Shown here: positions 1-23,829 of the stretch, one piece after another
Position numbering within the stretch: position 1 is the stretch's first letter
Layout of the letters: each line of letters starts with the position of its first letter
Origin: an uncultured Syntrophales bacterium
Lineage (GTDB): Bacteria > Desulfobacterota > Syntrophia > Syntrophales > JADFWA01
DNA: 57,103 nucleotides
Assembly: GCA_964454305.1 (NCBI GenBank)
Contig: CAYVXX010000001.1
Location: 1 to 57,103, forward strand
Reading direction: 5' to 3'
Notes under the pieces: model-generated
Seen by the model: only the letters and a program-made list of their open reading frames with translations
Database searches by the model: none
Told to the model about the DNA's origin: nothing
Translations under genes and position numbers: made by a program

Positions 1-352
1 CCACAACAATGTTTTTCCCCTCAAGATAGTCAATAGGCCACGAATTGCCCAGGGGTCCTCTGAGACCGATCCGGTTACCCTCATCAAGATTATGGAGCGC
101 AGTGGTGACGACACCTGCCTTCTGAACTGTAAACTCAAGATAGTCCGGCTGGGTCGGTGACGACGCAATACCGATCGGGGATTCCCCCTTGCCGAAAATA
201 GAAAGCTCAGCAAACTGTCCCGGCAGATACCTGAAGCGTTCTTTTTCGTCTTGACGGGCAAAAACCACCCGGAACGTCTTAATATCCTTCGTGTCCACCT
301 CCGTTATGATCTTCTCCACATCAACAGAAATCGGCATATATGGATTCTGCAT
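1..352 (-). CDS. FAD/NAD(P)-binding oxidoreductase, FlxA/AsrB/hydrogenase gamma-like (runs off the window edge)
   Basis: Not in the ORF track. Manual translation from ATG at 352 gives MQNPYMPISVDVEKIITEVDTKDIKTFRV...YLPGQFAELSIFGKGESPIGIASSP...GLRGPLGN, an FNR-type FAD-binding N-terminus; follows the flxB-like gene. Confidence 0.85.
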   Translation of the reverse strand, partial: MQNPYMPISVDVEKIITEVDTKDIKTFRVVFARQDEKERFRYLPGQFAELSIFGKGESPIGIASSPTQPDYLEFTVQKAGVVTTALHNLDEGNRIGLRGPLGNSWPIDYLEGKNIVV

Positions 353-377
353 TACTGTCTCCCAAGAGAAAGAAGAA

Positions 378-1418
378 TTATAGTTTCAAAGCTCTCAATT
401 CAGATATATCCTTCACTATCTTTCTTATATCTATATTAACGGGGCAATCTCTCACACACCTGCCACAGCCGACACAGGAAATAGCCTGAAAATTGTCCAC
501 ATAATACTTAAACTTGTGCATCACCCGCTGTCTCCATCTTCCCTTCTGGGACGGTCTTGGATTGTGGCCGGACGCTTCATGGGTAAATAACCAGTACATA
601 CATGAGTCCCAGGACCTTATCCGCCTTCCACGATCACCCTTGCTCTCATCACTGATATCGAAACAGTGACAGGTCGGACAGAGATAGGTGCAGGTTCCAC
701 AGGCAAGGCACCTTTGGTGGATTGAATCCCAGAATGGGTGTTCAAAATTGTCATCCAGCCAGGCCTTGATCTCCTTCGCCGGAATATGGGATTTAATCTC
801 CTTTTCAGCATTATCGGAAAGTTTCTTTTTCATTGCATCCACAGCGTCATCAGTCTCCGAAAGGCCTTCAAACTTTTCAAGAAGCTTCTTCCCCTTAGGG
901 GTCAGGGATTCGACAAAATAAGTATCACCGAGATCTGTCAACAGTATATCGCTTCCCTCTGAAGACATGGGATGTCCCCCCACCGACGTGCAGAAACAGG
1001 TTGTGTAGGGAGGGTGCACGCAGGCGAGCGTGATAATCGTTGTTTTATCTCTTCTGTCAATATAGTAGGTATCCCTGTACTCCTTCTGGTCAAAAACCAT
1101 ATCCAGGAGGACAAAACTCAAAGCATCACAGGGACGAACCCCAAAGAGTACGGCCTCTTTTGCTTCCTCACCGCTTCCCGAAATCTCCATTCCCCTGTCG
1201 GTTCTGGCATATTTCATCATTGCTTCAGTATGAGGAAAGAAAATATTTTTGGGGGCATTTTTAGAATTGAGATAGTCTACTAAAGGTTCCATCCCCTCTT
1301 CCAAAACCCTGAAAAGAACATCTCTTCCTTCCCTAACCGGTGCATAAACCGGCATCTCTTCAGAAATTCTTTTTATAACACCGGAAAGCATTTCCTTTTT
1401 TATTAGCCTTTTTTCCAT
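378..1418 (-). CDS. 4Fe-4S dicluster protein, FlxB/AsrA-like
   Basis: GVRPCD, CFCTS, CLACGTCTYLCPTCHC and CVGCGRCVRDCP motifs; within the hdr-flx cluster. Confidence 0.85.
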   Translation of the reverse strand: MEKRLIKKEMLSGVIKRISEEMPVYAPVREGRDVLFRVLEEGMEPLVDYLNSKNAPKNIFFPHTEAMMKYARTDRGMEISGSGEEAKEAVLFGVRPCDALSFVLLDMVFDQKEYRDTYYIDRRDKTTIITLACVHPPYTTCFCTSVGGHPMSSEGSDILLTDLGDTYFVESLTPKGKKLLEKFEGLSETDDAVDAMKKKLSDNAEKEIKSHIPAKEIKAWLDDNFEHPFWDSIHQRCLACGTCTYLCPTCHCFDISDESKGDRGRRIRSWDSCMYWLFTHEASGHNPRPSQKGRWRQRVMHKFKYYVDNFQAISCVGCGRCVRDCPVNIDIRKIVKDISELRALKL

Positions 1419-1470
1419 CCCTTTCCTTAGTAAATTCGCTTGGGGTTATATGTAATTAACTAAAATCCTT

Positions 1471-1511
1471 AACTTTAGGCACTTTAGATCACTTTAAACT
1501 TTAGGCACTTT
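1471..1511. repeat. Short-period tandem array (ACTTTAGGC/ACTTTAGATC units)
   Basis: aactttaggcactttagatcactttaaactttaggcacttt; the same unit recurs near 24840, 27295 and 53684. Confidence 0.7.
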
Positions 1512-16599: not shown

Positions 16600-18165
16600 C
16601 TACTGGACGTCTACTTCTGAATAGTAATGCTTTAAAATATCCCTACAGGAATGCCCTTCTTTGGCCATCACATATGCTCCCCACTGACTGAGCCCAACAC
16701 CATGGCCGTACCCTCTGCCGTCAAAACGAATCCCGTTCCTTTCTCTTGTCATGGTAAAGAGAGTGCTTTTAATCATTGTAGGATCTACTTTGATACGAAA
16801 GTTATTGCTGGAAAGGATACTTTCCCCACCGCTATGCAATATCCTTACTCTCTTAACCCTGCCACTGGGACTGACCTCGACGGTGGCAATCTCATATATA
16901 TCACCAATATCAAAACCACGTTTATTCAGGGCACCTTTTATCTCATCAAGGCTCAAAAATAGCGTCCATAAATAATTGGGAGCTTTTGTACTATAGCTAT
17001 CCGGAATACCTTTAAGATAAGGAACATCCGCTGTCCATACATTCTTTGCATTCTCGGTTCGTCCACCGCTGTTTGAATGGAAATAGGCCAGAACCGGCTG
17101 ATTATCGTAAATAAGTATTTTCCCCCTGGTTTCATCTACAGCTCTGTTAGAATATTCAGATTCCACATCCAGTCCTCCATATACCTGAGAATACGTTGTG
17201 GAATAAACATCATAGTCTTTGTTCTCATTTTTCATCTTCTGATAAACTGCATAGCTTCTTGCTACTATTGCCTGTGCCATCAGCGCCTCTGAGGACCAAC
17301 GCGGAGACATTTCTTTTGGTACAACACCATAAAGATATTCCTCCAATCCTAAAACATTAATAACATCCACTCCTTCATCTGTGCTTTTCTGTATCCTGAT
17401 TCTTCCCCTGTAGGATTTACCGTTTACCTTCAGTATTCCCTCTTCAGATGGAAGTATAACCAACCTGCTGGAGGAGGAGGGCAAGGCAGCATCATTTACC
17501 ATTATGGTTTTAATGTGTGTCCTTACAACAGCAATCTGGTCGGAGAGTAATCTGAAAAGTGTATTCATCCCATTTAAATCCTTCACCATAAATGGGGTAG
17601 AGCAGCTTATAGTAATCTCCTTCTTACCTTCAATTATCAAGACCCTTATCTCTTTATCTATGGATATTTTGAAAGTCTCTCTTTTATCTTCCTTCTTGAT
17701 CATGATGGAGGGCTTTGAACAGATCTCGATCATAAATTCGGCAGTTCCCCTCCTCTCACCCTGGGGATACCTTTCAAGATACTTCCTGAATTGCTCCAAC
17801 GCCTCTCTATTCTTCCCTTTCTCGTAGAGGATCATCCCCGAATTGAAATAAGCATTTCCAACATATTCGCTCCTGTGATATTTTTCCTTCACAATAGAAT
17901 ATTTTTCCAGCGCCAGATCGTCATTATTCAGAAAATAACTGTAAATATCTCCTATCCTTAACACCGATTTTGCCTGCATGTCATAATCATTAGAATTATC
18001 TACAATATCCTGATAGGCACCAATTGCTTCGAGGTCAAGTCCCCTTTTAAGATAACTATCAGCCACTCTCATTGCCTGCATAACATCGTAAGTGTGACCC
18101 TTCCCCACAAAAATGAGGGACAAACCAATAAGGAAAATGCAGATCATTGGGGATTTTTTAGTCAT
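16600..18165 (-). CDS. SpoIID/LytB-family lytic transglycosylase with an N-terminal TPR region
   Basis: Signal peptide; TPR-like helices; INVLGLEEYLYGVVPKEM, ALMAQAIVARSYA, SQVYGG, GRGYGHGVGLSQWGA. Confidence 0.88.
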   Translation of the reverse strand: MTKKSPMICIFLIGLSLIFVGKGHTYDVMQAMRVADSYLKRGLDLEAIGAYQDIVDNSNDYDMQAKSVLRIGDIYSYFLNNDDLALEKYSIVKEKYHRSEYVGNAYFNSGMILYEKGKNREALEQFRKYLERYPQGERRGTAEFMIEICSKPSIMIKKEDKRETFKISIDKEIRVLIIEGKKEITISCSTPFMVKDLNGMNTLFRLLSDQIAVVRTHIKTIMVNDAALPSSSSRLVILPSEEGILKVNGKSYRGRIRIQKSTDEGVDVINVLGLEEYLYGVVPKEMSPRWSSEALMAQAIVARSYAVYQKMKNENKDYDVYSTTYSQVYGGLDVESEYSNRAVDETRGKILIYDNQPVLAYFHSNSGGRTENAKNVWTADVPYLKGIPDSYSTKAPNYLWTLFLSLDEIKGALNKRGFDIGDIYEIATVEVSPSGRVKRVRILHSGGESILSSNNFRIKVDPTMIKSTLFTMTRERNGIRFDGRGYGHGVGLSQWGAYVMAKEGHSCRDILKHYYSEVDVQ

Positions 18166-18190
18166 AACTTTTCTTTTCAAAGGAAGTATT

Positions 18191-18344
18191 GAAGCTCCCC
18201 GCAGCAAGCTGCGGGGAATCTCCGACTGTTTAGTAAGTTAGAAATTATTTTCTGCCAGAAAATAATTTCGTTAACGCATTTATCCCCTTTAGTGGGATTT
18301 ATCCCCTTTAGCGGGACTTATCCCGTTTATCGGGGTAAGGAAAA
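18191..18344. mobile_element. Palindrome-ended MITE-like repeat (GAAGCTCCCCGC family, subtype A)
   Basis: gaagctccccgcagcaagctgcgggga...ttatcccctttagtggga units...gtaaggaaaa; near-identical to 26306..26440. Confidence 0.75.
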
Positions 18345-18425
18345 TTGTTGAATCACAAACGATCATAATGGCTTAGTTCAAATTTGACAGTTGATAGCTG
18401 AATTCTGATTTTCTTGAAGGGTGCC

Positions 18426-18858
18426 GGAGCAGATCGTAAGCCGAGTTCTGTTCCCCCTCCCGGTTACCCGAAAGGGGGTGATGATCATTAATCTGGAACA
18501 ACAGTTGCCTGTTGCTTCAAGCGACACTACCCGAGAACTTCGAGCGGGCTACTCTCAAACGTTCTCCTATTTGGTCTTGCTCCAGATGGGGTTTACCAAG
18601 CTTTCCCGGTCACCCGGAAAACTGGTGAGCTCTTACCTCACCTTTTCACCCTTACCCGGTGTGATGGACAGAACCAGTCTCACCGGGCGGTATATTTTCT
18701 GTGGCACTTTCCTTAGGGTCACCCCCAGTCGCCGTTAGCGACCATCCTGCCCTGTGGAGCTCGGACTTTCCTCCGGTCCGGCATGCTATCTTTAATCCTG
18801 AAACAAATTCAGGACAAGTTCTCTGCACAACCGAACCAGCGATCATCTTACCTACTCC
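18426..18858 (-). ncRNA. rnpB: RNase P RNA (bacterial type A)
   Basis: GAGGAAAGTCCGAGCTC near the 5' end, AAAGTGCCACAGAAA, and 3' ACAGAACTCGGCTTAC; P1 pairs GGAGTAGGT with ATCTGCTCC. Confidence 0.95.
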
Positions 18859-18880: not shown

Positions 18881-19618
18881 CTAATTTTTATCTATATCAC
18901 TCCAATGTATAATTCTATTACAGTTAGGACATAATATCAAATCCTCAAATTTTTGCAATTCGTTGTACATCTGAGGAGGAATATTCATGTGACATCCACC
19001 ACAAACTCCATTCCACACCGAAACCACGGCAAGGTCGTTTCTCTTTTCCTTAATAATCTCATATTTTTTAACGAGATCTTTATCAATTTCTCTCCTCACA
19101 TCATCAATTTTCTTCTGACATGCTGAGAGTTCAGAATCGATAGAATTTATTGCCTGCTCAATCTCACTTCTTGCTTTTTCGTATTTCAAACGATAAGCGT
19201 TAAGTTCTTCTTCCTTACTTTTCAATCCTTCCCTTACGACATCTATTTCTTCCAAAATATAAATAGTCCCATCTTCGATCTCGCTGTTTTTTCCCTCGAC
19301 AGTTTCAATCTCTTTAAGCATAGCATGATATTCTTTGTTTGTTTTTATCTCCAGCAATCTATTTTTAGTCTTTTTAAGACTTTCGATACCTCTTTTAAGG
19401 CTTTCCTCTTTTTCTCTATGCATCACATTTAATTCTTCAAACCTTCTCCTTTCCTCCCCCACCTTGTCCTCAAAACTCTGAAATCCCTTATCAAGTTCGG
19501 CTATCTTATCCGGCAATTTCTCATTCTTCATTTTTATTTCTTTCATCTCTAAATCGTTTTTCTGAAGTTCTATTAATAATAATATCTGTTTCTTCAATAA
19601 ACTTCCTCCTTTATTCAT
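18881..19618 (-). CDS. Coiled-coil protein with a C4 zinc ribbon (DUF164/CT398-like)
   Basis: Long coiled coil followed by CGGCHMNIPPQ...CPNCNRII; typical neighbour of rnpB. Confidence 0.88.
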   Translation of the reverse strand: MNKGGSLLKKQILLLIELQKNDLEMKEIKMKNEKLPDKIAELDKGFQSFEDKVGEERRRFEELNVMHREKEESLKRGIESLKKTKNRLLEIKTNKEYHAMLKEIETVEGKNSEIEDGTIYILEEIDVVREGLKSKEEELNAYRLKYEKARSEIEQAINSIDSELSACQKKIDDVRREIDKDLVKKYEIIKEKRNDLAVVSVWNGVCGGCHMNIPPQMYNELQKFEDLILCPNCNRIIHWSDIDKN

Positions 19619-19902: not shown

Positions 19903-19978
19903 TGGTGGGCCCACCTGGGTTCGAACCAGGGACCTACCGGTTATGAGCCGGTGGCTCTTCCAACTGAGCTATGGGCCC
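19903..19978 (-). tRNA. tRNA with CAT anticodon, most likely tRNA-Ile2 (lysidine)
   Basis: GGGCCCATAGCTCAGTTGGAAGAGCCACCGGCTCATAACCGGTAGGTCCCTGGTTCGAACCCAGGTGGGCCCACCA; cloverleaf with encoded CCA; lies downstream of rpoD as ileX does in E. coli. Confidence 0.93.
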
Positions 19979-20212
19979 AAAGCACAAGACCTTTAAAACC
20001 TCCCTCAAAACGCACAGCAAGGCATAGCTGACAAATGTAATAGTGCTATCCCTTAACATTTCGAAGTTCCCTGCAGTTAATCACATAGAACTTCAATTTC
20101 ACTTAAAAATTAATATTTTATCAAATCCATCGGAGTTGGATTTCGAGATGTTTACAGATTTTGTAAACATTTAAGCTTATTTCTCAAAACAATTTGGTAA
20201 TTTATACTCATT

Positions 20213-21982
20213 CTAAATTTCTGTCAAGGTCTTATTTCGCTCCCGCTTTATTTCCCTTTTCCTGGAAAGATTTTTCACCTTCCTTAAAGCATTTGCCTCT
20301 ATCTCCTTGGTCAGCTCTATGGTTTCATCTAAATTATCCATCTCATCTTCCAGTTCATAATCCGCCCGTTCACCGATACCGAACCGCATTCTCAACACCT
20401 TTTCCTCCCTCGGTGTTAAAGTAGAAAGAATGCCCCTGGTATGTTCGGCAAGATTCATATTTATTGTAGCCTCCGAAGGAGACATAACTCCTTTATCCTC
20501 AATAAAATCACCTAGGTGACTATCTTCTTCCTCTCCTATCGGAGTTTCCAAAGATATAGGTTCCTTGGCAATCTTTAAGACCTTTCTTACCTTTTCCAAG
20601 GGAAACTCCATCTTATTGGCAATCTCATCTGGAGTCGGTTCTCGTCCTAATTCCTGAACTAAATACCTGGAAGTTCTAATGAGCTTGTTAATAGTCTCAA
20701 TCATATGTACTGGAATTCTTATTGTTCGTGCCTGATCGGCTATCGCTCTGGTTATAGCCTGTCGAATCCACCACGTGGCATAGGTAGAAAATTTATATCC
20801 CCTTTGATATTCAAATTTTTCAACGGCCTTCATCAATCCAATATTTCCTTCCTGAACAAGATCCAAAAACTGCAATCCTCTGTTTGTATATTTCTTGGCA
20901 ATACTTACGACCAATCTGAGGTTCGCTTCAACAAGTTCCTTTTTTGCCAGATTTGCTTTTTTCTCTCCCTGTTCTATCGAAAAGGCTATTCTCTTCAAGG
21001 AGTCTACCGTGAGGTCGGTATCTGATCTTATCTTTCTTATCTTGCTGCGGATCTCCCTTAGGACTTTTTCATATTTTTTCAGCGTTTCAACCGAAACCCC
21101 TATTTTCTTTGCAATTTGCTTTTCATTTTGGGGTTCTCTTCTCATCAAGATACATGTCCTTTCCAACACATTGAGTGACATACCAGTTTTCTCTTTACAT
21201 CTCAAAATATCCTTCTCAGCTTTTTTTATTTCATTAACATAAGCCTTGAACCTTAAAGCTATTCTGTTGATTTGATTTTTGTTAAACTTATTTTCTTTAC
21301 ATAGATTCATGATGTTTTTTGTATTTTTCCTTAATCTTAACTTCATTCTCTTCTGCTGAACATCATCAAGCCCTTTTTCCTTGAACTTCTTATAAAGAAC
21401 CTCATTTTTCTTGTTTATTGCTGCTATTTTATCAATAATCGAAAGTGCCTTCTCTTTGTACACCTCTTCTTCTACAAAACCATCTTCAACCTCAAGATTA
21501 TGGACAACATTTTTCACTCTAAACTCTCCACTCCTCAACTTAGCACCCATCTCTATTACATCTTTAATTGAAACCGGTACGCTGAAAATGGCGTCTATTA
21601 TTTCTTTTTCTCCTTCTTCTATTTTTTTCGCGATCTCTACCTCCCCTTCACGACTGAGCAGAGACACAAGGCCCATCTCCCGAAGGTACATTTTCACAGG
21701 ATCACCCGTCTTGGGAGGAACAGGAATGACAGTAACATAATCATTTTCTTTTGAATCAATATCCTCTTCAATCGTTTTTTTCAGGATTATTTTTTCACCC
21801 TTGTCGGTATCAATAATATCTATGTTCTTCTCGCCAAAGAGTATAATAATGTCATCTATCTGGTCTGAAGATATGACATCAGACGGCAAAATATCATTAA
21901 CATCATCATAGGTTAGAAAACCCTTTTCCTCACCTAATGTAATAAGTCTTTTCAACTCATCTGACTGTATTTTCTTTCCCAT
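20213..21982 (-). CDS. rpoD: RNA polymerase sigma-70 factor RpoD with an atypical region 4.2
   Basis: Region 1.1 ([13 protein letters not shown]), [41 protein letters not shown]; downstream of dnaG. Confidence 0.93.
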
Positions 21983-21998: not shown

Positions 21999-22057
21999 AG
22001 TTCTGGGTTTAAAGTTCAAAGTTCAAATCGAAACCTGGAACTCAGAACTTTGAACTC
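21999..22057. repeat. Inverted heptamer array (AGTTCAA/TTGAACT)
   Basis: aaagttcaaagttcaaatcgaaacctggaactcagaactttgaact; a similar array lies at 25312..25400. Confidence 0.6.
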
Positions 22058-23829
22058 TATAATAGCTCTTTTTCCTCTTTCAATAATTTTTCCTTTTCCA
22101 TTAAAAGGGTGTTCCATATTTTTTGATCATTCGTTTCCTGGGCTTTAACAAGTTCCCTATTTAAACTTTTACGTTTCCCCTTGTACCACTTCTGCTTTAT
22201 CCTCTTAACTGAATCATCAAAGACCCTGTCAATAACCGCATCATCATAGGGACTCTCAGTCATTGTTAACTTCAGGAGTCTCTCCCTTACAACTCCATCT
22301 TCAAGGCCATCTACAACATCAGAAACATTAAGTTTCCCATTCCTACCATAGGATTGCCCCAAGACATTTCCCAATCTTTTCAAATCATCACTCATAAAAT
22401 AATCTAACACTTTTCCATCTATAATTTCAGGAACCTTGAAAGGGTATTCCAGCATCATATGAATAAGGCCAAGTTCTATAACATCTACATATTTGTTTTT
22501 CTTCTTGCCTGATAGATCTTCTCCTGTAGCTTTTCGGGAACTTAGCTTCCTGTTTATCTCTCTTTTCAGGAGCCTTTGGTCAATACCCGATTTTTCTGAA
22601 ACTCTTTTTATGAAAAGATTCCTTTGGATTGTATCACCAATATTCGAAATAAATAATACTGCATCCATCACCGAATCCAGATTTTCTTCAAAGGTCTCCT
22701 TGCCCCCTATTATCTTCTCTATATAATAATCCACCATAGATTGAGAATGATCAACCGCTTTCTCCAATGCCTCAATTCCAAAACTCCTGACGTACTCGTC
22801 AGGATCATAACCATCAGGAAGGACTACTATCTTCGTGTTGAGATTTCCTTCAAGAAACAATTTCAGGCTACGCTCCAAGGCATTCTTCCCACCCTCGTCA
22901 GGATCAAACATCACTACGAGATTTTTCGTATATCTTCTGATCAGGGCTACGTGCTCTTTTGTGACGGCCGTCCCAAGAGTGGCAACAACATTAGAAATGC
23001 CGAAACTTCTAAGCGACAGGAGGTCTAAATATCCCTCAACAAGAATTGCATAATCCTTTTTTCGAATATCATCCTTGTTCCTGTTCAGGCCATACAGGAT
23101 TTTCCCCTTCACATATACTGGAGATTCCGGAGAATTCAGATATTTCGGCTCACCACTACCGATAACCCTTCCACCAAAGGCTACTACATTTCCACTTATA
23201 TCCTCTATCGGGAAAATCAACCTTCCCCTGAATCTGTCATAAAACCCTCCATTACTCTTCGGTATAATCAAACCTGCCTTTTCAACAAGTCCCAAAGGAA
23301 TATTTTCCCCTTTTAAAAATCTCTTTAGATATTCCCATCCATCCATAGAATATCCGAGGTTAAACTCTTTTATTACAGGATCTTTTATTCCCCTCTTTTC
23401 GAGATACCCTCGTACCACCCTTCCCGCCTCCGAAAAAAGGTTCTTCGAAAAATATTGAGCTGCCAGCAGGTTAACCCGCTTAAGTTCTTCCCTTATGCTG
23501 ATTTCCTTCTTTTCAGCACCACTCATATGCCTTGATTCGATAACAATCCCCATCTTACCGGCCAGGTGTCTCACTGCCTCGGGGAAAGACATGTTGTCAA
23601 TCTTCATAAGAAAGGTAAAAACATTTCCGCCTTCGCCACAACCAAAACAGTAAAAGATTTGTTTATCAGGATTTACAGTAAAAGACGGTTTTTTTTCTTT
23701 GTGAAAGGGGCATAAACCGGTAAAATTCCTTCCGGCCTTTTTAAGAGTAACATATCCCGAAACGAGACTAATAATATCTGCCCTGCTTCTTATCTCTTCT
23801 ATCTTATCCTCTGGAATATGTTCCTTCAA
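22057..23829 (-). CDS. dnaG: DNA primase
   Basis: CPFHKEKKPSF...CFGC zinc finger, PKYLNSPE, VEGYLD, DPDE TOPRIM motif. Confidence 0.96.
   Translation of the reverse strand: MKEHIPEDKIEEIRSRADIISLVSGYVTLKKAGRNFTGLCPFHKEKKPSFTVNPDKQIFYCFGCGEGGNVFTFLMKIDNMSFPEAVRHLAGKMGIVIESRHMSGAEKKEISIREELKRVNLLAAQYFSKNLFSEAGRVVRGYLEKRGIKDPVIKEFNLGYSMDGWEYLKRFLKGENIPLGLVEKAGLIIPKSNGGFYDRFRGRLIFPIEDISGNVVAFGGRVIGSGEPKYLNSPESPVYVKGKILYGLNRNKDDIRKKDYAILVEGYLDLLSLRSFGISNVVATLGTAVTKEHVALIRRYTKNLVVMFDPDEGGKNALERSLKLFLEGNLNTKIVVLPDGYDPDEYVRSFGIEALEKAVDHSQSMVDYYIEKIIGGKETFEENLDSVMDAVLFISNIGDTIQRNLFIKRVSEKSGIDQRLLKREINRKLSSRKATGEDLSGKKKNKYVDVIELGLIHMMLEYPFKVPEIIDGKVLDYFMSDDLKRLGNVLGQSYGRNGKLNVSDVVDGLEDGVVRERLLKLTMTESPYDDAVIDRVFDDSVKRIKQKWYKGKRKSLNRELVKAQETNDQKIWNTLLMEKEKLLKEEKELL

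Follow-up and report, generated by a model that had tools for sequence, protein, structure and literature searches.

A primary sigma factor with a degenerate region 4.2 and a conserved stand-alone region 4.2 protein in Syntrophia: a probable two-piece housekeeping sigma

INTRODUCTION

How does a bacterium read its -35 promoter elements when the part of the housekeeping sigma factor that normally reads them appears to have decayed? Few DNA-reading elements in bacteria are as conserved as region 4.2 of the primary sigma factor, and textbook accounts of promoter recognition take it that the -10 and -35 elements are both read by a single polypeptide. The question is raised by an rpoD gene in a stretch of 57,103 nucleotides from an uncultured bacterium of the order Syntrophales (class Syntrophia, phylum Desulfobacterota; assembly GCA_964454305.1, contig CAYVXX010000001.1, positions 1 to 57,103 of the forward strand), which we analyzed as a whole and refer to as the window. 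A first-pass annotation of the window had described the encoded RpoD as canonical up to region 4.1 and then rewritten into an acidic sequence, and had offered three readings: a housekeeping sigma that works independently of the -35 element, a sigma with a partner that supplies the missing function in trans, or a decoy or subfunctionalized paralog beside a second rpoD. Here, we describe the degeneration of region 4.2 throughout the class and a small, highly conserved protein that carries a canonical region 4.2 and co-occurs with the degenerate RpoD. Together, these suggest that the housekeeping sigma of this lineage is split into two polypeptides.

RESULTS

RpoD is canonical up to region 4.1 only

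The product of the rpoD gene (Table 1) matches the NCBIfam RpoD equivalog over its full length (residues 4 to 579 covered) with 632.9 bits against a cutoff of 555. In Pfam, region 1.1 (PF03979, 67.5 bits), region 1.2 (PF00140, 47.8 bits), region 2 (PF04542, 86.8 bits), and region 3 (PF04539, 109.3 bits) all score above their cutoffs, and Sigma70_r4 reaches just 36.7 bits. The translation is exactly as given in the first-pass annotation: canonical to region 4.1 and then an acidic stretch in which the -35-contact residues are replaced. The gapless alignment with Escherichia coli sigma70 claimed there is backed indirectly, via the family profile of the small protein described below, positions 44 to 84 of which align to residues 570 to 610 (of 613) of E. 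coli sigma70 in a PDB search. In the register obtained this way, the offset is 29 (D541 here corresponds to residue 570 in E. coli), and E. coli residues 584, 586, 588, 589, and 593, which presumably include most of the -35 contacts and an activator contact, are replaced by I555, L557, K559, E560, and N564, just as had been listed. The recognition helix in the source genus reads TIELTKEIE, with its basic contact residues replaced. Judged by translation, by register, and by hypervariability across the class, the helix-turn-helix of region 4.2 in RpoD is noncanonical and lacks the residues that read the -35 element. An AlphaFold2 model of RpoD (30-row alignment) has a mean predicted local distance difference test (pLDDT) score of 66.3, and residues 473 to 516, 532 to 560, and 562 to 589 fall under 50, so that the model gives no reliable call of order or disorder for the remnant. 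Elsewhere in the protein, a weak helix-turn-helix-like stretch was seen in the nonconserved region (residues ~270 to 306; window 21065..21178, minus strand), where HTH_7, Sigma70_r4_2, HTH_3, and MerR all scored below their cutoffs.

Region 4.2 has decayed across the order and the class

A search recovered RpoD in 38 of the 41 genomes of the same order, and its C terminus was inspected at 30 order loci. One of these is cut by a contig end; the other 29 all contain the invariant 12-residue stretch of region 4.1, and in none of them is it followed by a canonical region 4.2. Nearly the same acidic stretch as in the source genome occurs in three further genomes of its genus. Across an alignment of 31 RpoDs of the class, regions 2, 3, and 4.1 have majority-residue frequencies of 0.98, 0.96, and 0.93, respectively, versus 0.44 for the 4.2 stretch (residues 539 to 570), which is lower even than the 0.58 of the nonconserved region. 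Likewise, the ratio of nonsynonymous to synonymous substitution rates (dN/dS) among four genomes of the genus is 0.01 for regions 2 and 3 and 0.00 for region 4.1, which shows no nonsynonymous difference at all within the genus, versus 0.22 for the 4.2 stretch, equal to the value of the nonconserved region. As far as such rates can tell, purifying selection on regions 2 to 4.1 is very strong, and the constraint on the 4.2 stretch is greatly relaxed, not gone.

The variable segment has kept its length (28 to 36 residues; mean, 30.1, in the same 31 proteins) and is net acidic in 29 of them; three (L041, L042, and L044) stop inside region 4.2 and lack the basic tail. In every family examined, the helix-turn-helix has a degenerate first helix. 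Some families partly retain the recognition helix, whereas others show prolines, gaps, or early stops in it, and given this partial retention, the decay looks lineage by lineage from a canonical ancestor. In other words, the 4.2 stretch is a rapidly evolving remnant whose sequence varies between families and whose composition is acidic. The description of region 4.2 as rewritten into an acidic sequence therefore holds with respect to acidity but not with respect to one rewritten sequence, since the hypervariable remnant differs by family.

A small protein carries a canonical region 4.2

When the source genome was searched with Sigma70_r4, a 48-bit match, to profile positions 20 to 50 alone, was found in a 107-codon open frame on contig C7. 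The 96-residue protein encoded there scores 47.5 bits against PF04545, well over the gathering threshold of 24.1, and the match places the 4.2 half of the profile on residues 44 to 74. It consists of an N-terminal module with four conserved cysteines (positions 7, 18, 23, and 35), followed by a canonical primary-sigma region 4.2, including the recognition helix and the C-terminal tail. A fifth cysteine, at position 40, is invariant in the class sample and is a valine in family f26, which lies outside the class. Apart from the MzaA model, the best NCBIfam matches are to the last ~40 positions of RpoD models, and the family profile matches the C termini of Staphylococcus aureus, Bacillus subtilis, Thermus, and mycobacterial primary sigmas equally well. 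Residues 1 to 43 matched nothing in Pfam or, by sequence, in the PDB.

Conservation of this protein is the reverse of that of the RpoD remnant. An alignment of 35 homologues has 49 invariant columns, among them nearly the whole of residues 43 to 77, and the DNA-contacting stretch TRERIRQIE is invariant as well. Homologues at 73 to 83% identity are named "hypothetical protein" or "sigma factor-like helix-turn-helix DNA-binding protein" in Deltaproteobacteria, Smithella, and Syntrophales records, names that would place the source organism in Syntrophales/Syntrophia (Thermodesulfobacteriota). An AlphaFold2 model (35-row alignment) has a mean pLDDT of 53.8, with most of the N-terminal 42 residues under 50.

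At most of the class loci examined, an sppA-like/HU-like gene pair lies convergent with the small gene, an arrangement that is uninformative on function; at the source locus (L049, contig C7), the HU/IHF-like gene lies at 1203..1481 and the sppA-like gene at 308..1192, both on the plus strand and both named by eye. In three of four runs, lake-water RNA libraries yielded contigs over the small gene (run X4 had no such contig), and one of these contigs spans positions 1442 to 1794 of L049 without a mismatch. Five class genomes (G049, G125, G112, G106, and G109) carry the small protein in an additional, more diverged copy (63 to 75% identity to P0002), and divergent family members with altered recognition helices, e.g., P0137 and P0128, are found among the 50% representatives.

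The small protein and the degenerate RpoD share their distribution

The small protein is full-length in 39 of the 41 order genomes and in 117 of the 121 class genomes; in one further genome (G019), its gene is split over two contig ends. When the N-terminal 45 residues were used as the query, matches were obtained in 14 of 14 class genomes and in both genomes of family f26 but in none of 385 others of the phylum. The full-length protein was searched for in a phylum sample of 151 genomes, of which 144 lie outside the class and family f26. Matches occurred in 139 of these 144, and, among the matches listed, they cover residues ~41 to 88 only and mostly lie in frames of ~500 to 680 amino acids, which by length and position is the pattern expected of canonical RpoD. 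Full-length matches beyond the class, among those listed, were confined to family f26 (G135 and G180), the RpoD of which is likewise degenerate in region 4.2. Since kin are not independent, the co-occurrence amounts to one or two evolutionary events, not hundreds.

In a phmmer search of 1.84 billion representatives, residues 1 to 45 gave 18 matches at E values of ≤0.001. Fifteen of these are proteins of 80 to 172 amino acids, of which the 10 short ones inspected are all members of the small family. The three longer matches (266, 834, and 1,075 amino acids) contain multiple matched stretches, and the 266-residue one is a repeat protein. A word-based search for longer proteins with residues 1 to 45 as a fused N-terminal module found none, which is weak evidence. 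Phage origin was considered and rejected: a tblastn search of 50,697 phage records hit 39, the matches shown cover the 4.2 part only, and none covers 80% of the query. A wider contig scan with 4.2 word patterns was likewise set aside, as the 80 loci kept were ordinary RpoD of unrelated bacteria and uninformative on distribution.

Promoter-like sites indicate that a -35 element is read

A crude intergenic set was derived from the source genome by masking all ATG-started open reading frames of at least 100 codons, which left 1,389 pieces (432 kb). In this set, TTGACA is the most enriched hexamer 17 nucleotides upstream of TATAAT (up to one mismatch), with 34 occurrences versus 5.7 at control spacers, and therefore a canonical -35 reader is in use. 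When up to one mismatch is allowed in TTGACA as well, 98 sites are found at spacer 17, versus 48.8 (standard deviation, 8.6; z, 5.7), with shoulders at 15, 16, 18, and 19, whereas four control hexamers give z values of -0.8 to 1.5. Direct listing of TTGACA-N17-TATAAT-like sites yielded 36, of which 35 have unique sequences, and repeats therefore do not explain the enrichment. The reading of RpoD as a -35-independent housekeeping sigma is disfavored by this spacing-specific signal. The first-pass annotation had also taken scattered TTGACA hexamers as a hint that an intact sigma domain 4 exists in the cell. At one of these places, upstream of groES, TTGACA on the minus strand is followed after 16 nucleotides by TATTAT, as read by eye. 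The TGn motif before TATAAT-like sites is mildly enriched (317 versus 259.7; standard deviation, 21.9). Local promoter scans around rpoD and the small gene gave sites no more numerous than in shuffled sequence.

No second housekeeping sigma was detected in the source genome or in a closed relative

Other Sigma70_r2 genes in the source genome (202 contigs, 94.7% complete) are RpoH (341 bits; cutoff, 323) and a 206-amino-acid frame judged by eye to be extracytoplasmic function (ECF)-like. A second group-1 sigma was not found in this assembly. The closed class genome G014 contains only the small protein and an RpoH-like frame, and no second rpoD. Together with the strong constraint on regions 2 to 4.1, this speaks against the decoy or subfunctionalized paralog. 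Nor do the relatives carry a canonical 4.2 from which this copy had drifted neutrally beside an intact paralog; the decay is class-wide. The remaining weak region 4 matches in the source genome look LuxR/NarL-type, by eye from their translations, and no canonical -35 reader besides the small protein was found there. Two of the LuxR-type response-regulator matches, on contigs C54 and C135 of the source genome (G000), are identical and lie at identical coordinates (2067-2198), so these may be duplicate contigs in the assembly.

Extra sigma-70 family genes with a canonical region 4.2 do occur elsewhere in the class, at G039:C26, G128:C97, G099:C17, G095:C6, G032:C12, G124:C30, G066:C18, G107:C12, and G046:C37, and in a genome of family f26 (G180:C2, L092; a 497-amino-acid frame). 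These are perhaps group-2 sigmas.

Complex prediction gives weak support for an association of the two proteins

Structure prediction for RpoD residues 495 to 589 with the small protein and zinc gave a complex score of 0.60 (runs at 0.60, 0.81, and 0.59), versus 0.01 for the best of three controls. At least 60% of contacts are common to the runs, with a partner pLDDT of at least 66. The mark set for this score is reached by 58 of 80 solved complexes and by 2 of 110 mismatched pairs, and scores of 0.60 or lower occur in just 7 of the 80 solved complexes and in both mismatches that passed. The result is graded as weak support.

Features of the window and of the small gene

The coordinates of the features discussed are collected in Table 1; dnaG adjoins rpoD directly, in agreement with the first-pass annotation. 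The downstream tRNA with anticodon CAT, which that annotation took for tRNA-Ile2, is called tRNA-Met by ARAGORN. A TTGACA with a 17-nucleotide spacer and TAAATT lies over the last codons and the stop of rpoD (window 20199..20227, minus strand); located ~220 nucleotides upstream of the tRNA(CAT) gene, it could be the promoter of that gene. Further downstream, bacterial RNase P RNA class A was identified at 18422..18858 (minus strand, 314.6 bits), which explains the stretch free of genuine open reading frames, and the spurious ones, at that position. Two protein genes on the same strand are a 245-amino-acid coiled-coil protein with a CxxC...CxxC motif at its end (18881..19618) and a 535-amino-acid protein with a tetratricopeptide repeat-like N terminus and a C terminus that looks SpoIID-like by eye (16600..18207).

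Table 1. Positions of rpoD, its C-terminal parts, and its neighbors in the window, and of the small gene elsewhere in the genome
Feature	Coordinates	Strand	Residues or length	Basis
rpoD, primary (group 1) sigma factor	window 20213..21982	minus	589 amino acids plus stop	RpoD equivalog NF004208
Region 4.1, intact	window 20369..20467	minus	506-538	majority-residue frequency of 0.93 (31 class RpoDs)
Region 4.2 helix-turn-helix remnant, acidic, noncanonical	window 20261..20362	minus	541-574	translation and conservation drop
Basic C-terminal tail	window 20216..20260	minus	575-589	RKLRNPSRR-type stretch in most class RpoDs
dnaG (DNA primase), directly upstream of rpoD	window 22057..23829	minus		TIGR01391, 437.1 bits (cutoff, 283.6)
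tRNA gene, anticodon CAT, downstream of rpoD	window 19903..19978	minus		ARAGORN, tRNA-Met; Rfam tRNA, 68.4 bits
Small region 4.2 protein gene, on another contig, outside the window	G000:C7:44753-45040	minus	96 amino acids	Pfam Sigma70_r4 genome search

DISCUSSION

We consider it probable that the housekeeping sigma of these bacteria is split into two polypeptides and that -35 recognition is provided in trans by the small protein, which is the partner reading of the first-pass annotation; that reading gains support from a conserved, stand-alone canonical region 4.2 protein that co-occurs with a degenerate RpoD region 4.2. By sequence, the two proteins are complementary, RpoD having regions 2, 3, and 4.1 and the small protein a canonical region 4.2. 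Most simply, an ancestor of the class would have gained a separate gene in which a copy of region 4.2 and the tail was joined to the four-cysteine module. With -35 reading available in trans, the resident region 4.2 of RpoD would have been freed of constraint and have decayed along a separate path in each lineage, as far as truncation in some, while region 4.1 stayed invariant. RpoD retains regions 1.1 to 4.1, which bind core, recognize and melt the -10 element, and make up the first half of domain 4; its region 4.2 survives only as a mostly acidic, fast-evolving spacer of ~30 residues, followed by the basic tail. The small protein would join the RpoD holoenzyme at the -35 position and read TTGACA, probably docking on region 4.1 of RpoD, on the beta flap, or on both, with the four-cysteine module serving as an anchor or metal site. 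That cognate promoters require both polypeptides is suggested, indirectly, by the TTGACA-N17-TATAAT sites in a genome in which no other reader was found.

A number of observations weigh against such a two-piece sigma. The rpoD gene and the small gene are never adjacent and share no operon. In 4 of the 121 class genomes (G013, G111, G073, and G131, which are 98, 100, 98, and 90% complete), even a profile search found no small protein. In absolute terms the -35 signal is modest, and it comes from a crude intergenic mask of one genome; a per-position base profile upstream of 4,519 TATAAT-like sites was without signal, so that hexamer co-occurrence by spacer alone shows one. Nine of the 121 class genomes have an extra sigma with a canonical region 4.2, in frames of 353 to 529 amino acids; the source genome is without one, and for this genome taken alone, a second sigma could lie in the missing part of the assembly. 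The recognition helix is partly kept in some families (TRERARQIE in L025, VERARQIE in L032 and L038, and IERARQIE in L048), the RpoD of which may still touch the -35 element. The association of the small protein with RNA polymerase or RpoD is a prediction that carries weak support. Because region 4.1 packs on region 4.2 in solved sigma structures, the complex score may stem from the model's memory of an intact sigma domain 4 and reflect likeness rather than binding. Finally, the contigs from RNA libraries are evidence of presence in those libraries only and no proof of transcription.

Some of these observations would be accommodated more readily if RpoD worked via the -10 element, an extended -10 element, and activators, without any -35 contact, and if the small protein were an independent DNA-binding regulator or nucleoid-type protein that shares the 4.2 fold. 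Unlinked genes, a link to RpoD that is physical by prediction alone, and four class genomes with no detectable small protein would all suit such a regulator, as would the mild TGn enrichment and the small Sigma70_r4-only proteins that are also present in phage clusters. We nevertheless think this unlikely. The fixed spacing of 17 nucleotides between TTGACA and the -10 element implies reading within the initiation complex, the small protein retains the DNA-reading residues together with a primary-sigma C-terminal tail, near-invariance of residues 43 to 77 across a whole class is unusual for a free-standing regulator, and the co-occurrence with a degenerate RpoD region 4.2 is strict. We would give still less weight to a domain 4 mimic or decoy, in which case the small protein would compete with RpoD for activators, the beta flap, or anti-sigma-like partners and so regulate RpoD instead of completing it. 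It does retain the non-DNA face and the tail of region 4.2, it has a four-cysteine module that could sense metal or redox state, and complex prediction with the RpoD C terminus gives weak support, with a score well above the best control; however, a decoy leaves the reader of the TTGACA elements unexplained, as it does the decay of RpoD region 4.2 wherever a lineage has the small protein, and an invariant TRERIRQIE would be superfluous for a purely protein-binding decoy.

Similarly improbable, in our view, is a remnant that still aids -35 binding, at least where the recognition helix is partly kept, with the small protein as an accessory rather than a replacement. The helices retained in L025, L032, L038, and L048 fit this idea, and both the conserved length of the remnant and its dN/dS of 0.22 indicate that it is not neutral. 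Against it stand the source genus itself, where the basic contact residues of the helix are replaced, and the prolines, gaps, or early stops in other families, with a first helix that is degenerate in all. That the gene is a pseudogene, an assembly or binning artifact, or a paralog in decay next to an intact rpoD, as a draft of 202 contigs might bring to mind, is extremely improbable and, as far as these data go, refuted: three other genomes of the genus share the acidic stretch and all 29 readable order RpoDs are noncanonical in region 4.2, the frame is open with a dN/dS of ≤0.01 over regions 2 to 4.1, the gene occupies the dnaG-rpoD locus, and a second rpoD was found neither here nor in the closed genome G014.

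If the housekeeping sigma is indeed a two-piece factor, a further step can be imagined, which we regard as speculative and on balance doubtful. The -35 reader might be a detachable metal- or redox-sensing subunit, with zinc or an Fe-S cluster bound by the four cysteines, in strict anaerobes. Its loading and release could switch the transcription machinery as a whole between -35-dependent and -35-independent promoters, and the reader might dock on the acidic remnant of RpoD or be parked there through DNA mimicry.

Split sigma factors as such are not without precedent. According to two sources (bioRxiv 10.64898/2026.10.01.756105; PMC10141391), they include SigO-RsoA of B. subtilis, Sig7-Sig8 of Tn916, gp33/gp34 of SPO1, and gp55/gp33 of T4. 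The likeness, which here is deduced from sequence, lies in -10 and -35 functions on two polypeptides that act together on RNA polymerase. As far as those accounts go, the known pairs are alternative, phage, or mobile-element sigmas cut between domains 2 and 4, whereas the factor proposed here is a housekeeping group-1 sigma cut inside domain 4, such that region 4.1 stays and region 4.2 moves. Unlike the known cases, a decayed remnant of region 4.2 remains in place, the detached piece has an extra four-cysteine module, and the arrangement is fixed in a whole class. The small protein itself resembles the -35-bound canonical region 4.2 of Thermus aquaticus sigmaA domain 4 (PDB 1ku3 and 1ku7) and of E. 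coli sigma70, its profile positions 44 to 84 aligning to the last ~40 residues with E values of 1e-11 to 1e-15; TLEEVG and a 15-residue stretch are common to the small-protein profile and the S. aureus and B. subtilis SigA alignments. It differs from canonical region 4.2 in that its helix-turn-helix stands outside any sigma polypeptide and is preceded by 43 residues with no PDB sequence match.

The closest functional analogies may be two systems with unrelated proteins. In the AsiA/MotA system of phage T4, -35 reading by sigma70 region 4 is disabled and recognition of the upstream promoter part is provided in trans by a separate DNA-binding protein. There, a phage takes over with unrelated proteins and a different DNA motif, whereas here a cellular gene with a canonical region 4.2 and, presumably, a TTGACA target would be at work. 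Wbl proteins use an AT-hook, not a sigma helix-turn-helix, and region 4.2 of their partner sigma is intact. The small protein bears no sequence relation to WhiB-like proteins and has a different cysteine spacing, in keeping with the Pfam search, which at E values of ≤1 listed Sigma70_r4, HTH_3, AbiEi_4, and KORA only and gave no Whib match. The analogy is with members such as mycobacterial WhiB7 (PMC3905903); WhiB7 is a small four-cysteine protein that binds the primary sigma and makes an extra DNA contact near the -35 element. Our literature search, supplementary files aside, turned up neither a split or 4.2-less housekeeping sigma nor the small-protein family.

If the two-piece sigma proposed here is correct, Syntrophia would be a natural lineage with its housekeeping -35 reader on a 96-residue protein of its own, and sigma domain 4 would be internally divisible. 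Such a lineage would provide a natural system for asking how region 4.2 is held on RNA polymerase, and the four-cysteine module might prove to be a point of control over global promoter choice. A detachable metal- or redox-sensing reader, were it to exist, would add a new layer of global regulation and would clearly exemplify, in nature, how an essential factor that is otherwise single-chain everywhere can be split and then locked in by decay of the original part. In practical terms, promoter prediction and heterologous expression for these syntrophic, methanogenesis-linked bacteria would have to allow for two components.

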